NCBI GenBank assembly: GCA_037130265.1
Contig: JBAXTI010000001.1
Location: 235,086-299,085 of the forward strand
Length of the DNA: 64,000 nt
Source of the DNA: a bacterium
GTDB lineage: Bacteria; Patescibacteriota; Minisyncoccia; Phycocordibacterales; JBBTRF01
Direction: 5' to 3'
This document shows, in pieces, positions 3,030 to 18,447 of this stretch (position 1 is its first letter; every line of letters starts with the position of its first letter). Made by a program: the position numbers and the translations under genes. Under the pieces are notes generated by a model. That model was not told the DNA's origin. It ran no database searches and saw only the letters and a program-made list of their open reading frames with translations.

Positions 3030-6000
3030 ATGTCATCTAAAGATTCAGACAAGAAGCCAAAGGGCGGCAGCGAGGGCAAAAGCGACAAGGGTGGAAAAGG
3101 CGGCGCATCAGAGGCGTCGGCTTTGCCTGCGCGAGAGAATGTGGTGAGTCGCAGTATCACGACTGAAATGCGCGACTCGTATTTGGACTACGCGATGTCC
3201 GTGATCACTGCGCGTGCTTTGCCAGATGTGCGCGATGGTTTGAAGCCGGTACACCGACGTATTTTGTACGCGATGCATGAAATGGGTCTCACCGCGAGCA
3301 CGAAGACACGAAAGTCGGCCGCGGTGGTGGGAGACGTACTCGGAAAGTATCACCCGCACGGCAACGTGGCGGTATATGAGTCGATGGTGAAGATGGCCCA
3401 GGATTTTTCGATTCGGTATCCGCTGATTATTGGGCAAGGTAACTTTGGTTGTTTTACAAAAGACACAAAAGTCCGATTGGCTGACGGCCGCAATCTCTCT
3501 TTTGGCGAGCTCATCGATGAGGATAAGAATGGTAAGAAAAATTACGCCTTCACTGTCTCAAAAGAAGGAAAGATTGAAATCGCTCAACTCACAAAACCGC
3601 GGCTCACTATCAAAGGCGCCGAAATTATGAAAGTGATTCTTGATAATGGCGAGGAAATTCGATGCACGCTGAATCATAAGTTCCTTTTGAAAAACCAGGA
3701 ATACAAAGAGGCGCAATATTTGAAACCGGGCGAATCATTGATGCCTCTTTACACTCGTCTTTCTACGAAAGGCGAAAGTGCACTCTCGGACATGGTGGGA
3801 TATGAAATGATCTACCAACCGCTTGAAAATACTTGGGAGTATGCACATTATTTGGCCGACGCTTTCAACATCTCGACTGGAAAGTATGCAAAATCAGCTG
3901 GCAAGGTGCGACATCATGTCGATTTCAATAAACTCAATAATAGCCCAGAAAACATCCAGCGAATGCAGTGGCTTGAGCATTGGCGCCTCCACTCTGAACT
4001 AACCGCGAGTCGTCATAAAAATGATCCTGAGTATGTAAAAAAGCTTGCTGAAGGCAGAAAGATTTTCCGTGCCAAGAGCGGCATAAAAGAGCAGTACAGC
4101 CAGAGGATGTCAAAGAGAAATAAGCAGAATTGGCAGAATCCTGAATATCGTGCACAGATGATCGAGACGCTCCGTCGAGTGAATCTTGAGTATATTGCTA
4201 CTCATCCTGAAAAGCGCCTAGAACTTTCAGCTCGCGCAACCAAGACGTTGAAGCGATTGTGGCAAGATGAGACGTATCGCCAAGAGATGCACGAACGAAT
4301 CGTCCGAGGGAATAAAAACCACACCACCAATAAGACCGGCAAGAAAAAGTTTGATACGGTCTGCAAGAAATTGATCGAAGTCGGAGTACCGATTTCTAAA
4401 GAGACCTACGATGAATTTCGTCCGAAGGTGTATCCATACAAAGCGGCTACTTCGTGGGAGGTCGGTTTCAGTAAATATTACAATGGCAATATTGAACAGT
4501 TGACCGTAGAGCTTGCAGGAAATCACAAAGTGTCCAGTGTCGAATTTTCTGGCGAACACGAGGATGTATACGATCTCACTTTGCCAATAAGTCACAACTT
4601 TGCGCTGGCGGCGGGCGTATTTGTGCACAACTCCATCGACGGTGACGGTGCGGCAGCAGAACGATACACCGAAGCGAAGATGGCGCGTGTGTCCTCGACC
4701 CTGCTTCAGGATATTGAGAAAGACACTGTTGACTTTCGTCCAAACTACGAAAATACTCGCAAGGAGCCGAGTGTGTTGCCGGCCGCTGTTCCGAACCTAC
4801 TGCTGAACGGCACCCTCGGTATCGCCGTCGGTATGGCGACCAACATCCCGCCGCACAACCTTGGCGAAGTGGTGGACGCAACAACTCATCTCATCGAAAA
4901 CCCCGACGCTTCGACCGAAGATCTTTTGCAATTTGTGAAGGGTCCCGATTTCCCGACCGGTGCGATGCTCTACGCTTCAGCAGAAATGAAACATGCATAT
5001 ACCACCGGTCGTGGTGGTGTGGTAGTACGTGGCGAGGCGGAAATTGTCGAGACAAAGACTGGTTCATTCCAGATTGTCATCACTTCGATCCCATATCGTG
5101 TAAATAAGGCCGACCTCATCCTCACCATTGCCGACCTTGTGCGAGAGAAGAAAATTGAAGGTATTAGAACGATGCGTGATGAATCGACCAAGGACATCCG
5201 TGTCGTAATCGACCTCAAACAAGGCGCTTTCCCTCAGGCTGTATTGAACTTTTTGTATAAACACACCCAGCTTGAAGACACCTTCCACTTCAACACTGTT
5301 GCCCTCGTGGACGGCGTGCCGCAGACACTTTCGCTGAAGAGTGTACTGGAGGAATTTGTGAAGCACCGACAGATCGTCGTGCGACGCCGAACAGAATTTG
5401 ACCTTCGCAAGGCCGAAGACCGCGAGCATATCTTGCTCGGCTTGAAAAAGGCGCTCGACCATATCGATGAGATCATTAAATTGATCAAAAAGTCGAAGGA
5501 CACTCCGGAGGCGCATCTCAATTTGATGAAGACCTTCAAATTCTCCGACCGCCAGGCGACTGCTATTTTGGAAATGAAGCTGTCACGACTTGCGGGTCTC
5601 GAGCGACAGAAGATTGAGGACGAGCTCAATGCTGTCCAGGCGCTCATCCGCGAGCTCAAGGATTTGCTCTCGAGTGCAAAGAAGATTTTGGCCGTGATTA
5701 AGAAAGAATTGCTCGAAGTTCGCGCGAAATACGGCGACGAACGACGCACTAAAGTCATCCGTGGCGGCGTGAAAGAATTCAAGCCGGAAGATACCATTCC
5801 TGATGTGGATTCTGTGCTCGTGCTCACCGCAGGTGGCTACATCAAGCGCACCTTGCCAGACGAATATCGCCGACAGAAGCGTGGCGGTGTGGGTGTTGTC
5901 GATCTCGATACCAAGGAAGAGGATTTCATCACCCATATTTTGAATGCGAACACGCATGCGGATATGTTGTTCTTCACGAACAAGGGCAAGGCGTACCAGA

Positions 6001-6782
6001 TCAAGATGTACGAGATTCCAGAAGGCAAGCGTGCTACAAAAGGTAAGTCTATTGTAAACTTCCTCGCGCTCGCCGATGATGAACGTGTCACCTCGATTCT
6101 CCCAATGCCAAAGGAGGTGAAGAAGAGTGGTCTCAGTCTCTTCATGGTCACCAAAAACGGCGTAGGCAAGAAGGTGAATGCTGAAACCTTCCATGATGTG
6201 CGCCGAAGTGGTCTCATTGCTATTGGCCTCGATGCAGGTGACAGTTTGGTGTCCGTACGATTTGTGGAGAAGGGCGACGAAGTGATCCTTGCGACGAGCG
6301 AAGGTCAGTCGATTCGATTCAAAGAAACTGATATTCGTGAGATGGGTCGTGCGGCGATGGGCGTTATCGCGATGCGTCTCGAAAAGGGCGACACGGTCAT
6401 TGGTGCCGACGTCGTGAAGAAAGATATGAAGAAGCCGGCATTGCTGGTGATCATGAGCAACGGCTATGGCAAGCAGACCGAGCTCTCCGAATACAAGGTC
6501 CAGAAGCGCGGCGGTTCCGGTATTTTGACTGCGAAGATCACCGACAAGACCGGCAAGGTGATCACCTCGAGTGTGGTGGATACTGCAGCTGCAAAGGATG
6601 GGAAAGATGCCAAGGAGGGCGAGGCGGAGCTGGAGATGAACGAGCTTGTAGCTATTTCAAAAAAGAGTCAGGTGATCCGGTGCGATATCGCGGAGATACC
6701 AGTGCTCGGCCGACAGACTCAGGGTGTGCGTATTATGCGTCTGCGTGATGGGGACTCTTTGGCGAGTGCGGTGTGTTTGTAG
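3030..6782 (+). CDS. gyrA: DNA gyrase subunit A interrupted by a 394-aa intein
   Basis: The N-extein carries canonical GyrA motifs ([48 protein letters not shown]). After the intein the sequence resumes with [20 protein letters not shown], which includes the catalytic Tyr in RYTEA. A long GyrA C-terminal beta-pinwheel region follows. Total length is 1250 aa against about 830-900 for an uninterrupted GyrA. Confidence 0.92.
3450..4631 (+). mobile_element. intein within gyrA (Cys1 ... His-Asn/Ser+1) carrying an HNH-type endonuclease module
   Basis: The insert starts with Cys directly after GNFG ([13 protein letters not shown], splicing block A). Block B is TLNHKFL. It ends [22 protein letters not shown] followed by S+1. 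The middle region contains [18 protein letters not shown] (His-His...Asn...Asn, an HNH signature) and three tandem motifs of about 20 aa ([42 protein letters not shown]). Confidence 0.8.
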
Positions 6783-6932: not shown

Positions 6933-8093
6933 TCAGGGACGGCTTTGGGCGGCCTGCTGAATCACTCGGATGCGCCAGAATCGATTGCTCGACCCGACGC
7001 TGTTCACCGGCGTGGGGCAGAGGTAGTGGGCGATACCGCTCTGTGAGAGGGCGGGTAGCGTTACCTCTGTGGTCCACTGGACTGCGGGTCCAAAACCACC
7101 AGCGCTTTCGAGCACCACGAGGTCTCCGGGTTGTCCCACGATGCTCACCTTTGGCTTTCCGCTGACGAGCGAGACGCCGGTGACCATTGGATTCCCGATC
7201 GGTTGCCCGGTCGGTAGCCAATATCGCGGAAACGTGCCGTCCGCCGCTTCGAGAGCGAGGACTGCCGGAGTTCCGTTGGTTAGGAGCGAGAGGTGGATGC
7301 CGATGCGGCCGATGCCGTAGAGGCGGAGGAGTTTGACTCCGTCCGTATGTTCGTAGTCGCCGTAGGCCGACATATCGGCCTGAGTCCGGTCGATAATCGA
7401 ACTACCCCAGCCCTTACTTTGGACTTCGCTCACGCTGCCGTCTGGGTTACCCGTGAAGACTCGAGCATATGTTTTTCGCTCAAAGTAATACTGGAAATAC
7501 CAAGGCGGCGGAGGCAATTGGTCGAAATACTTCAGGTCCGGGAAGGACAAGAAGATGTAGGGTGAGAGGTAGACGGGAATCGTGTCGGCCATAGCGGTGT
7601 TCGGAAGTTTGAAGCCTCCGGAACCATTGGGGAGAATCGGGATGATTCCGTTGATACCCGCCATCTCCAACGTGGTCGTCGGAACATTATCCTGTGGGAA
7701 GATGCTCGTGATGCCCACCTCCTTCGCTGTGGCGATGAGGAGGAAGGTTGCATTCGTCGCGTTGTTGTTCGCTGATGGAAAGTTTGTTGCCAAACATGCC
7801 ACCTGAAAAGCAACTTCGCGTAGTTTGCTGACGACCGCATCTGGGCTGAGGCCTGCGGAGAAGGAGATATTGGTGAACAAGACAGGTGCTTCTTCTTGGA
7901 CCGCATAGTAGTCGTGTGGGGTCCGATAGAGCGATGCACTAATCGTATTCACTTTCGCAAGTTGTTGTGTGCGAATCTGGCTGATGGTGCTTGGGAGCAC
8001 ATCAGCTGCTCCAACCTCCACCGTGACCAGCTGGGTCAGGTAGGCGAGGGAACCGACAAGGGCGGCAAGCGCCCGATTGCGTAGGGCATTCAT
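6933..8093 (-). CDS. hypothetical secreted protein (N-terminal signal peptide)
   Basis: MNALRNRALAALVGSLAYLTQLVTV looks like a signal peptide. No recognisable catalytic motifs. It is convergent with gyrA. Confidence 0.45.
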   Translation of the reverse strand: MNALRNRALAALVGSLAYLTQLVTVEVGAADVLPSTISQIRTQQLAKVNTISASLYRTPHDYYAVQEEAPVLFTNISFSAGLSPDAVVSKLREVAFQVACLATNFPSANNNATNATFLLIATAKEVGITSIFPQDNVPTTTLEMAGINGIIPILPNGSGGFKLPNTAMADTIPVYLSPYIFLSFPDLKYFDQLPPPPWYFQYYFERKTYARVFTGNPDGSVSEVQSKGWGSSIIDRTQADMSAYGDYEHTDGVKLLRLYGIGRIGIHLSLLTNGTPAVLALEAADGTFPRYWLPTGQPIGNPMVTGVSLVSGKPKVSIVGQPGDLVVLESAGGFGPAVQWTTEVTLPALSQSGIAHYLCPTPVNSVGSSNRFWRIRVIQQAAQSRP

Positions 8094-16693: not shown

Positions 16694-16925
16694 TTTAAAG
16701 ACCGAATACCGAGTTGTGGTTGAGAACAGACCATACCATAGCACCAATTACACTCTTCGTCAAGTAGTGCGCGGGAGAGGCTTGGTCACGAGTTCTTCTC
16801 GCTCTGCTCGAAGCCTCTCGACCCCGCCTCAGAAAAGCTTCCCCGAAGCTTTTCTTCCGGCTTTCAAGTCCTCTCCGCTTGGGTATGAAAAACAGCCGAC
16901 AGGGAGTCGGCCATTTTTCATACGG

Positions 16926-17006
16926 TGCGCGGGAGAGGACTTGAACCTCCATGCCTTGCGGCACTTGCTCCTAAGGCAAGCGTGTCTGCCATTTCACCAC
17001 CCGCGC
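16926..17006 (-). tRNA. tRNA-Leu (anticodon TAG), type II with long variable arm
   Basis: Reverse complement GCGCGGGTGGTGAAATGGCAGACACGCTTGCCTTAGGAGCAAGTGCCGCAAGGCATGGAGGTTCAAGTCCTCTCCCGCGCA. Acceptor GCGCGGG/CCCGCGC, anticodon loop CTTAGGA, T-loop TTCAAGT. No encoded CCA. Confidence 0.85.
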
Positions 17007-17340
17007 ATAGGGGTATCGTAACATATTCGAGGAACATCGGCTTCGCCGATTGTGCAATGCTTGTGCACCCAGTAAGGCGGGTTGCGAAACGCAACACCGG
17101 GCCGCCTTGTCTGGTAAGGTGCGGCCCACCGGCCGCTCTATTTCTGTGCACCAATCTCCTCACTTTGCTTCGCTGCGTTCGTCGCTTGGTGCACCCAGTA
17201 GGATTCTCGGCTACCGCCGCGGGTGCTTTTCCATCTCATTTCGCTCCGCTCATTCGATAAGGAAAAGCCTTTCGAATCCTACCCGCAGGCACGCAGGTGC
17301 CTGCTTGGGTGCACTATTCGCTTCACTCCGTTTCGCTCTG

Positions 17341-17413
17341 TGCACCCAGTAGGATTCGAACCTACGACCTACCGCTTAAGAGGCGGATGCTCTACCAACT
17401 GAGCTATAGGTGC
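17341..17413 (-). tRNA. tRNA-Lys (anticodon CTT)
   Basis: Reverse complement GCACCTATAGCTCAGTTGGTAGAGCATCCGCCTCTTAAGCGGTAGGTCGTAGGTTCGAATCCTACTGGGTGCA. Acceptor GCACCTA/TGGGTGC, anticodon loop CTCTTAA, T-arm GTAGG-TTCGAAT-CCTAC. Confidence 0.85.
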
Positions 17414-17518
17414 ATGTCGGGAAAATATAACAGATTTCTGGCTTATTCGCAAGAAAAAAGAACCACCGTCGCTGTGAGCGCCGGTGGTGGTGGGGATACT
17501 CGCTATCGACGTGACGTT

Positions 17519-18145
17519 CTACATAGAGCACCTGTTTATTTCCTGGAAGTGAACGAGGCACTTAAAGGCGTCCCTTGAGAATGCGCATATGGATAGTCGA
17601 AAATCAATCGTGCCATCCGGATTGGTGGTTTGATGGCACGTGTAGGAGAGGTGCCGTGCGTTCACTCCCAACACGAAACAGTGCTGGCTCAGTCCGTCGA
17701 TAATCGTATTCATTTGTGATCGGACTTGCTTGGGAACCGATTCAAACGCGATGTGGTCCGAGCTGATACGGGACTTTTTTGGAGCGACGAAGTATTCGAG
17801 CGCGTCCACAACTCTGTCTGAAAGGAACAGCCGATATCCTTCCGTCCAATTGTCGCTAAACGTTTTTGCGACATTGCGTGCGAGACAGAGGGCGGCGTAA
17901 AACTCTGGACAGAGAAGTGGCGTCCAGGGATTCAGCCGCAATGAAGCGTAGGTGGCGGCGATATCCGTCTGCAGCAACAGGCAAGCAGAGAGTAGCGATG
18001 TAGAGAAGGCGAGGAAGTGCGGTCGGACCACTTTCCATTCCTTTTTCCAACCCTCCATTTCTGCAAGGAAGCTGTCGTGAGTGCGTTGTTCGAGCAATGA
18101 AACAAACAGGCTGAGTAATGTTGGGTGCATGGTGTGTGGCAACAA
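17519..18145 (-). CDS. hypothetical protein between tRNA-Lys and tRNA-Leu(TAA)
   Basis: ORF of 208 aa with no recognisable motifs, flanked by tRNAs on the same strand. Confidence 0.3.
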   Translation of the reverse strand: MLPHTMHPTLLSLFVSLLEQRTHDSFLAEMEGWKKEWKVVRPHFLAFSTSLLSACLLLQTDIAATYASLRLNPWTPLLCPEFYAALCLARNVAKTFSDNWTEGYRLFLSDRVVDALEYFVAPKKSRISSDHIAFESVPKQVRSQMNTIIDGLSQHCFVLGVNARHLSYTCHQTTNPDGTIDFRLSICAFSRDAFKCLVHFQEINRCSM

Positions 18146-18247
18146 TGAGCCGTGTCCCCTGTGCCCTCCGAAGGATAGCGAAAATCAGGGTCTGAGCGCA
18201 TTGTATCCTCAGAGTCAGGGGTGGTCAAAGGAAAACTGTATTTTTTG

Positions 18248-18330
18248 TGCCCGGGGTGGGAATCGAACCCACATTCCTTTTGAGAACACCATTTTAAGTG
18301 GTGCGCGGCTACCAATTACGCCACCCGGGC
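18248..18330 (-). tRNA. tRNA-Leu (anticodon TAA), type II
   Basis: Reverse complement GCCCGGGTGGCGTAATTGGTAGCCGCGCACCACTTAAAATGGTGTTCTCAAAAGGAATGTGGGTTCGATTCCCACCCCGGGCA. Anticodon stem CACCA/TGGTG, loop CTTAAAA, long variable arm. Confidence 0.85.
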
Positions 18331-18370
18331 AGGTATTATTTCACTTACTTAATTCTAACAGAGAAATTTG

Positions 18371-18447
18371 TGGAGGCGTAGGCCGGGATCGAACCGGCGC
18401 ATAGCAGTTTTGCAGACTGCCGCGTTGACCAACTTCGCCACTACGCC
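18371..18447 (-). tRNA. tRNA-Cys (anticodon GCA), CCA encoded
   Basis: Reverse complement GGCGTAGTGGCGAAGTTGGTCAACGCGGCAGTCTGCAAAACTGCTATGCGCCGGTTCGATCCCGGCCTACGCCTCCA. Anticodon loop CTGCAAA, T-arm GCCGG-TTCGATC-CCGGC. Confidence 0.85.

Follow-up and report, generated by a model that had tools for sequence, protein, structure and literature searches.

The gyrA gene of an uncultured bacterium, in the 64-kb stretch of DNA that was analysed (the window), is interrupted by an insert which we read, with a probability of about 0.88, as a class-1 intein that bears an HNH homing endonuclease, lies at the position equivalent to Gly110/Ser111 of Escherichia coli GyrA and belongs to a large mobile family of inteins inserted at this same site. 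The intein is real but ordinary, because the same insert occupies the same spot in well over a hundred bacterial and archaeal species. The gene, the intein and its parts are listed in Table 1.

Table 1. Positions in the window of the gyrA gene, its exteins and the parts of its intein (a slash marks a splice junction).
Feature	Position	Strand	Residues	Description
gyrA ORF	3030..6782	+		Includes the stop codon; 1250-aa precursor, 856-aa mature GyrA if spliced
N-extein	3030..3449	+	aa 1-140	Ends ...IIGQGNFG; last residue equals E. coli GyrA Gly110
Intein	3450..4631	+	Precursor aa 141-534	394 aa, in frame; Cys1 ... His393-Asn394; junctions GQGNFG/C...VHN/SIDGD
HINT N-lobe	3450..3749	+	Intein aa 1-100	Block A Cys1, block B T73-L-N-H76; TIGR01445 intein_Nterm over aa 1-79
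HNH (His-Me finger) nuclease core	3786..4022	+	Intein aa 113-191	Beta hairpin and helix, then beta-beta-alpha unit
Basic helical repeat array	4023..4316	+	Intein aa 192-289	Presumed DNA-binding arm
Small C-terminal helical subdomain of the nuclease region	4338..4514	+	Intein aa 297-355	Four short helices in AF2 models
HINT C-lobe	4521..4631	+	Intein aa 358-394	Blocks F and G, NHKV...EDVYDLT...; TIGR01443 intein_Cterm over aa 372-394
C-extein	4632..6779	+		Begins with Ser+1 (precursor Ser535)

The precursor was recognized as GyrA by Pfam (DNA_topoisoIV, 1.7e-147, and six DNA_gyraseA_C blades), and exactly the same 1250-aa protein was also found on the ENA contig ERZ4222710 NODE_1 (368 kb). When a profile of the intein family was compared with E. 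coli GyrA chains (6rks_A and others), the match stopped at chain residue 110, and excision of the intein in silico restored GQGNFG-SIDGD. The catalytic Tyr (precursor residue 546, nt 4665-4667) is located 12 residues past the splice junction, so that the distance of 13 residues upstream of the classic Tyr/Thr site given in a preliminary description of this DNA has to be corrected to 12. No second intein was present at the classic RY/TE site of this gyrA, where RY-TEAK was read directly as unbroken, tblastn with the intein detected no further copies in the rest of the window, and scanning the window for Rfam families and tRNAs yielded nothing relevant. A pseudogene or an assembly artefact, or else a fixed domain insertion that does not splice, would be an extremely improbable explanation of the insert: the 1250-aa ORF runs without frameshifts or stops on a 368-kb contig, every splicing nucleophile and assisting residue is present, and the insertion interrupts a motif adjoining the active-site Tyr which is contiguous in solved GyrA structures.

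Judged by its sequence and its predicted structure, the insert is a canonical class-1 intein with a HINT fold. It was matched by Pfam Intein_splicing (3e-20) and by the NCBIfam models intein_Nterm (4.2e-10) and intein_Cterm (8.6e-5), both NCBIfam scores being above cut-off, and the set of class-1 residues is complete: Cys1 (precursor Cys141), T73-x-x-H76, H393-N394 and Ser+1. Conservation was measured on a family alignment of 35 relatives with 32-63% identity, in which T73 and H76 of the N-lobe were invariant and C72 nearly invariant; in the C-lobe, N358, H359, V373, N383, F384, F391, V392 and N394 were invariant, and H393 was nearly so (at least 90%). The AF2 model of the intein had a mean pLDDT of 87.7, with both HINT lobes above 90, and Foldseek matched the predicted lobes to the solved inteins DnaE, DnaB, RecA, NrdJ-1 and RadA (E 1e-6 to 1e-4). 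The full model retrieved HINT domains and inteins from the PDB and nothing else, and when PDB chains were searched by sequence and by profile, only inteins and GyrA exteins matched. The GC content of the intein was 44.6% vs 52.5% in the extein, and its GC3 was 0.49 vs 0.62, a difference that stays inside roughly 1 SD for the long ORFs of the window. The preliminary description had placed a GyrA intein between GNFG and SIDGD and had considered splicing blocks A, B and G to be intact, and both statements were confirmed by these results.

With this set of residues, the 394-aa intein would be expected to splice out of GyrA. Following translation of the 1250-aa precursor, Cys1 would perform an N-S acyl shift, helped by T73 and H76 of block B, and the thioester would be attacked by Ser+1; cyclisation of Asn394, helped by His393, would then free the intein, and an O-N shift would yield the 856-aa GyrA, with its two exteins rejoined beside the catalytic Tyr.

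The nuclease embedded in the intein is, on its motif and predicted fold, an HNH-family homing endonuclease. The HNH motif reads H155-H156-x-D158 ... N163-N164-x-P166-x-N168 ... H177 ... H181, with an 18-residue HNH string at intein residues 153-170, and the AF2 models predict a beta-beta-alpha unit made of strands 153-156 and 169-172 and helix 174-191. H156, N163, N164, P166, H177 and H181 were invariant in the 35-sequence alignment, and H155 and N168 were invariant or nearly so. PHROG 7545, named 'HNH endonuclease', matched intein residues 113-191 (2.4e-7), followed by PHROGs 21964 and 15471 (about 1e-3); Pfam HNH_3 stayed below its gathering score in the intein itself (13.7 vs 24.8 bits, E 0.049) and matched 13 of the 35 homologous inteins (best 2.6e-7). 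A Foldseek search of BFVD retrieved many phage HNH and homing endonucleases, as well as a Hint-domain protein of Bacillus phage SP-15 (5e-8). Neither a LAGLIDADG motif nor a Pfam LAGLIDADG match was detected in the intein, supporting the earlier claim that its endonuclease is of the HNH and not of the LAGLIDADG type. Foldseek with the nuclease domain alone gave nothing significant in the PDB (best HNH-related match E=5), and a nuclease-only family profile found no sequence relative among PDB chains. The nuclease module was present in 782 clusters at 50% identity, and isolated phages contributed four weak relatives and no more. No solved structure was found for any of the family's nuclease modules, and no published activity was found in the literature for any member of the intein family.

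The PHROG and BFVD matches suggest a likeness to phage homing endonucleases of the I-HmuI/HNH_3 type, which likewise have an HNH beta-beta-alpha-metal core, a small beta element before it and helical DNA-binding extensions after it. I-HmuI nicks DNA. Enzymes of this type are free-standing or intron-encoded, whereas the nuclease described here is embedded in a HINT domain. The freed 394-aa intein would nick or cut an intein-less gyrA around GGGCAAGGTAACTTTGGT/TCCATCGACGGTGACGGT (the intein-less junction sequence would be ...GGGCAAGGTAACTTTGGTTCCATCGACGGTGACGGT...), both the cleavage and its target being predictions. His156 would act as the general base, N164/N168 and H177/H181 would have roles in structure and metal binding, and an extended DNA site would be held by the basic repeat arm and the small C-terminal helical subdomain; the intein would then be copied into the cut allele via recombinational repair.

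When one genome from each GTDB species was scanned for the junction, the same intein family was seen at the identical GyrA site in at least 120 species (120 of the 120 matches listed), and it also occupied this site in the majority of the 120 best protein clusters. The family is large and horizontally mobile, and is present at exactly the GyrA Gly110/Ser111 site in many bacteria and archaea: carriers include the cultured Oscillochloris trichoides DG6 (L003) and Thiocystis minor DSM 178, many CPR bacteria, DPANN archaea, and MAGs labelled Saccharibacteria, Woesearchaeota and Nanoarchaeota. In these same-site relatives, for example those of O. trichoides and of Parcubacteria bacterium GW2011_GWA2_49_9 (P0002), the allele reads GQGNxG/S(I/V/L/M)DGD; they share the CFTxDTK start, the (V/I)FVHN/S end and the HNH motif, and are 44-64% identical to the present intein over 100% of the query, that is, diverged by at least 36%. 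Some differ from it by expanded repeat arrays (to 528 aa), by deletions (P0024, P0029 and P0031 are partly deleted), by reduction to minis or by extra inteins in the gene. Among the matches listed, 81 copies were complete, with both ends; a length of 390-396 aa was the commonest full-length class (42/81), the HNH motif was kept in 58 of the 81, minis under 220 aa without HNH accounted for 14 of them, and a further class exceeded 400 aa. Such length classes fit a cycle of homing in which inteins invade a site, decay and are lost. Very recent homing is not apparent, the nearest relative of the intein being only about 63-64% identical, and no trace of co-conversion was detected, the flanking third codon positions showing no conservation beyond protein constraint. 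Mobility is supported by the presence of the same intein family in GyrB, RadA, dCTP deaminase, peptidase C1 and phage-like proteins, by the 782 clusters that contain the nuclease module, by an intein identity to archaeal copies (51-55%) that equalled or exceeded that of the C-extein (44-51%), and by the lower GC3 of the intein.

The decayed copies bear on a possible, though clearly less probable, reading of the intein as a vertically inherited passenger heading for a mini-intein, in which splicing is functional, as it must still be because gyrA is essential, and the nuclease is dead. The HNH-less minis and the several partly deleted copies at this site would fit such a history, as would the distance to the nearest relative and the sub-threshold HNH_3 score; however, all the family-invariant HNH positions are intact in this intein, in length and architecture it belongs to the commonest full-length class, and its ORF is unbroken, all of which speak against a dead nuclease.

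The literature that was found names the mycobacterial Tyr/Thr site only, and neither a paper on the Gly110/Ser111 allele nor a table of GyrA sites was found, which would favor a gyrA insertion site and an intein type that are out of the ordinary and may be uncatalogued. This is nevertheless highly improbable in view of the breadth of the species scan, with cultured genomes among the carriers, of the name that NCBI gives to such proteins ('intein-containing DNA gyrase subunit A', P0052), and of the 50 GyrA inteins, including those of Chloroflexi and Proteobacteria, counted by Novikova et al. 2016 (PMC4760082). The Gly110/Ser111 allele is abundant and already known, as evidenced by public annotation and genome records, and the rarity of the site and allele implied in the preliminary description does not hold, being refuted by the very condition which that description had set.

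Two other groups of gyrase inteins can be compared with this one. The mycobacterial GyrA inteins (Mxe GyrA) are likewise class-1 and occupy the same catalytic-Tyr loop of the same host protein, but their site lies 12 residues downstream (RY/C...N/TE) and their full-length forms carry LAGLIDADG, unlike this intein. Three relatives (P0007, P0014 and P0023) carry inteins at Gly110/Ser111 and at the classic site side by side in one gene, and the two are therefore separate alleles. The GyrB inteins of the same family, found in cyanobacteria and elsewhere, for example in Cyanothece sp. SIO2G6 (P0067), Nostoc sp. CHAB 5715 (P0117) and Omnitrophica (P0066), are 33-48% identical to the GyrA intein, with a CF(S/H)GDT start and a VFVHN/S end, and are inserted at a different site (...GDSAGG/C...N/SAKQGRDR). 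Full-length GyrB copies (P0058 and P0066) have the same HNH core and W-x-x-P-E-Y-K/R repeats, whereas the 259-aa intein of P0067 ends inside the HNH motif and is without repeats. We take this GyrB group to contain the Ssp GyrB intein, known from split-intein engineering and as an early-reported HNH-containing intein. One further relative, P0086, is a GyrA/GyrB chimera and probably an assembly artefact; nothing specific speaks for an artefact at the locus studied here.

The array that follows the HNH core consists, in the AF2 models, of five helices (193-208, 212-229, 231-251, 254-271 and 274-286), with three [DN][PE][ET]Y (PEYR-type) motifs at intein residues 192, 230 and 273. The helices with PEYR motifs alternate with a second helix type (z vs shuffles of 6.5 for C-E, 3.1 for A-C and 3.8 for B-D). 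The preliminary description had reported three tandem repeats of about 20 aa: the repeated helical segment and its three motifs were recovered, but the motifs are spaced by 38 and 43 aa, and the length of about 20 aa is correct as the base unit of the family only (about 17-21 aa, with W-motif spacing modes of 17, 21 and 43). The 111-aa segment around the array (residues 186-296) contains 27 K/R vs 13 D/E, and the array, which had no match in Pfam and no sequence match in the PDB, may serve in DNA binding. Its copy number differs among same-site alleles, from about five helices in inteins of 391-394 aa to well over ten in those of 520-528 aa.

These repeats are unlikely to be NUMOD3-type modules, which are the nuclease-associated helices with which I-TevI-like enzymes bind DNA. 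The string P-E-Y-R-x-K-M-S-E..K is loosely like the NUMOD3 consensus S-x-E-T-K-x-K-I-S, and the repeat segment is basic and helical; in I-TevI homologues, NUMOD3-like G-x-x-H-S-x-E-T-K-x-K-I-S strings were recognized by eye, the Pfam search having been run on I-TevI alone. However, no Pfam NUMOD1, NUMOD3 or NUMOD4 match was obtained for the intein, its 35 relatives or three isolated repeat arrays at E<=10, using a NUMOD3 model that is itself weak (I-TevI reaches just 19.3 bits); at this threshold the isolated arrays returned sub-threshold GerD and other noise. An HMM built from 217 repeat units gave I-TevI and three of the homologues with NUMOD3-like strings scores that did not exceed those of 200 shuffled versions of each protein. 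NUMOD membership, which the preliminary description had suggested looking for, was rejected because there was no Pfam NUMOD match and the HMM scores did not rise above the shuffles. The W-x-(D/N)-P-E-Y-R-x-K-M-S helical repeat might instead form a modular array for DNA binding that is nuclease-specific and has not been described before, a tentative proposal that is itself rather doubtful. A low-confidence linker (residues 284-295) leads to the small C-terminal helical subdomain, which is possibly HTH-like, by analogy with the HTH-looking string ...IRGAA(K/R)LLGC... carried at the equivalent position by P0085 and P0109.

The discovery value of this intein is small, given that gyrase inteins, HNH-bearing inteins and this exact site are already abundant in public genomes. 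Its practical value is modest: a family with relatives among the GyrB inteins known from cyanobacteria and from other lineages gains one more member that is full-length, looks intact and has a confidently predicted structure. The spread of the family across CPR bacteria and DPANN archaea and its variable repeat arm are the sole aspects that might merit more work; should each repeat unit recognize a short DNA segment, the family would amount to a naturally occurring series of nucleases whose recognition arms can be extended.

The 1250-aa ORF was assigned to GyrA by a Pfam DNA_topoisoIV match (1.7e-147) and six C-terminal beta-propeller blades, and the intein boundaries of the preliminary description agreed exactly with the translation, in which the intein ends in AAGVFVHN before the C-extein. 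The best extein matches were CPR/Patescibacteria MAGs (71-78% identity), and an identical precursor was also found on a 368-kb ENA metagenome contig, in an ordinary neighbourhood (proteins with an S1 domain and with an MBL fold). The match of the family profile to solved E. coli GyrA chains stops at residue 110, which, together with the catalytic Tyr122, places the intein at Gly110|Ser111 (E. coli numbering), 12 residues upstream of the classic Tyr|Thr site, and not 13 as previously counted. The ORF that directly follows gyrA is encoded on the other strand, has no Pfam family on record and lies in a local GC-rich patch (58-62%). Besides the clustered tRNAs, four more are scattered elsewhere in the window; Rfam and tRNA scans of the window detected no rRNA and no other Rfam family.

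Coordinates of the gyrA intein and accompanying features in the window
Feature	Position (nt)	Strand	Description	Basis
gyrA ORF	3030-6782	+	1250 aa	ORF call and Pfam
Intein	3450-4631	+	precursor residues 141-534, 394 aa	translation
ORF downstream of gyrA	6933-8093	-	386 aa	
tRNA cluster	16924-18447	-	Leu-tag, Lys-ctt, Leu-taa, Cys-gca (n = 4)	

The insert is a genuine class-1 intein. The Pfam Intein_splicing model (3e-20) matched this GyrA above threshold, as did the NCBIfam models for the N and C termini of inteins. An alignment of 35 relatives of the intein (32-63% identity) revealed invariant splicing-region columns at D65, T73 and H76 (the TxxH of block B), L97-M98-P99, N358-H359, V373, N383-F384, F391-V392 and N394, with C72 and H393 nearly invariant; all these conserved positions, plus Cys1 and Ser+1, are present in the window's intein, in line with the intact splicing blocks A, B and G of the preliminary description. 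The AlphaFold2 model built on this alignment reached a mean pLDDT of 87.7 and exceeded 90 in both HINT lobes, which Foldseek matched to the solved DnaE, DnaB, RecA, NrdJ-1 and RadA inteins. Since the host gene is essential and its product is interrupted in the loop beside the catalytic Tyr, the intein is probably splicing-competent. Cys72 (window 3663-3665), immediately before the block B Thr, was conserved in at least 90% of the relatives; redox control of splicing by this second Cys near Cys1 is possible in principle, as pure speculation.

The HNH string (29 residues) spans intein residues 153-181. Pfam HNH_3 was sub-threshold on the window's intein (E 0.049, 13.7 bits vs a 24.8-bit cut-off); it was found in 13 of the 35 homologous inteins (best 2.6e-7), and a PHROG HNH-endonuclease family matched residues 113-191 (2.4e-7). 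H156, N163, N164, P166, H177 and H181 were invariant in the alignment, and H155, D158 and N168 nearly so. In the AlphaFold2 models, the second of which covered residues 100-358 (pLDDT 92.3), a beta-beta-alpha unit (strands 153-156 and 169-172, helix 174-191) precedes five helices (193-286); four short helices (297-355) come after a low-confidence linker. Foldseek gave no significant PDB match for the nuclease domain, and sequence and profile searches of PDB chains gave no solved relative supporting the HNH assignment; the viral structure library returned a Hint-domain protein of Bacillus phage SP-15 (5e-8) and many phage HNH and homing endonucleases (probability ~1). Because profiles, conservation and predicted fold agree, the HNH module claimed earlier is well supported, and the homing endonuclease looks intact.

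The gyrA insertion site is heavily populated and this kind of intein is already known. Of the 205 proteins recovered with the intein as query, the best 120 were mostly GyrA fragments carrying GQGN(F/W/M/Y)G|CFTxDTK and reading VHN|S(I/V/L/M)DGD where the C-terminal end was present. A degenerate DNA pattern specific to the junction, scanned against one genome per GTDB species, yielded at least 120 matches, and 120 of the 120 listed were true GyrA|intein junctions of the same family, ruling out an unusual site. The rarity implied by the preliminary description gave way to a well-populated gyrA allele with the same endonuclease type. Among the matches listed, bacterial carriers included many CPR groups, Chloroflexota, Omnitrophota, Planctomycetia, Elusimicrobiota, Armatimonadota, Acidobacteriota and Gammaproteobacteria, two of them cultured (Oscillochloris trichoides DG6, 520 aa; Thiocystis minor DSM 178, a 148-aa mini), and archaeal carriers included Woese-, Nano-, Pace- and Micrarchaeota, Diapherotrites, Methanoperedens, Bathyarchaeia, Nitrosotalea and Thermoplasmatales. 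Among the 81 listed copies with both ends, 42 measured 390-396 aa (39 matching the canonical HNH regex), 22 exceeded 400 aa through repeat expansion, three were intermediate (220-380 aa) and 14 were minis below 220 aa without HNH. NCBI annotation already uses 'intein-containing DNA gyrase subunit A' for proteins of this type; 50 GyrA inteins were reported from Actinobacteria, Aquificae, Chloroflexi and Proteobacteria (Novikova et al. 2016, PMC4760082), and 23 intein-containing archaeal GyrA sequences were dropped from another dataset (Villain et al. 2022, PMC9348778).

Three relatives (P0007, P0014 and P0023) carried two inteins in one GyrA, separated by the 12 residues S(V/I)DGDS(A/P)AAMRY; the downstream intein, at the classic AAMRY|C site, has LAGLIDADG-like motifs, whereas its neighbour is an HNH intein of the window's kind. 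Another relative, P0045, had a third intein (LAGLIDADG_3) further upstream, making three insertion sites within ~50 residues of the GyrA active-site region.

The same intein and nuclease module also occurred in GyrB, dCTP deaminase, papain-like peptidases and phage-like proteins, and the module alone in 782 50%-identity clusters (E<=1e-3). Against archaeal copies, intein identity (51-55%) equalled or exceeded C-extein identity (44-51%), whereas within CPR the extein was the more similar; the nearest relative of the intein was ~63-64% identical. GC was 44.6% in the intein vs 52.5% in the host gene (3030-3449 and 4632-6779), and GC3 0.49 vs 0.62, a GC offset compatible with foreign origin but within ~1 SD of the long ORFs in the window. 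Third codon positions flanking the insertion showed no extra conservation. The host range, clusters, archaeal identities and composition fit horizontal spread by homing, and the minis and partial deletions (P0024, P0029, P0031) a decay cycle, recent activity not being proved. RadA copies seen in full (P0093, P0100, P0107) were minis of ~150 aa without the nuclease. On a 2311-bp ENA contig, one predicted protein (P0086) joined a GyrA N-extein to a GyrB C-extein (VHN|SSKMARDK, then Toprim and GyrB_C) through a 166-aa mini-intein of the same family; its likeliest origin is a misassembly of the metagenome across near-identical intein copies in the gyrA and gyrB of one genome.

Three tandem repeats of about 20 aa had been described alongside the HNH signature: the three PEYR-type motifs were recovered (intein residues 192, 230 and 273), at spacings of 38 and 43 residues instead. 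Two types alternate along the five helices, A/C/E and B/D (similarity vs shuffles: C-E z=6.5, A-C z=3.1, B-D z=3.8). Successive W-x-(D/N)-P-x-Y-R motifs across the family had spacing modes of 17, 21 and 43 residues, so the base unit is ~17-21 aa; of the ~5 units in the window's intein, three retain the signature. Pfam NUMOD matched neither the intein, nor the 35 relatives, nor three isolated repeat arrays (searched to E<=10), and an HMM of 217 repeat units scored I-TevI and three homologues, in which NUMOD3-like strings are visible by eye, no better than their own shuffles; the NUMOD membership suggested earlier is thus not supported. A functional analogy is possible, because the Pfam NUMOD3 model is weak (I-TevI itself scores only 19.3 bits). 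Repeat arrays (intein residues 186-296, P0028 and the Oscillochloris locus L003) gave recurrent sub-threshold matches to the Pfam GerD central core (best E 1.3e-4, 22 bits vs a 29.5-bit cut-off), itself a helical repeat protein, probably reflecting compositional or coiled-helix similarity.

The repeat segment (residues 186-296, 111 aa) is strongly basic (27 K/R vs 13 D/E), which fits a putative DNA-binding arm. Repeat number varies widely at the one gyrA site (L003, two further scan loci, L057 and L118, and the relatives P0028 and P0053), intein length ranging from 391 to 528 aa, and the large arrays look like tandem expansions of this presumed arm. The variable, family-specific repeat arm, which has neither a Pfam family nor a relative of characterised structure, is the sole thread with some novelty.
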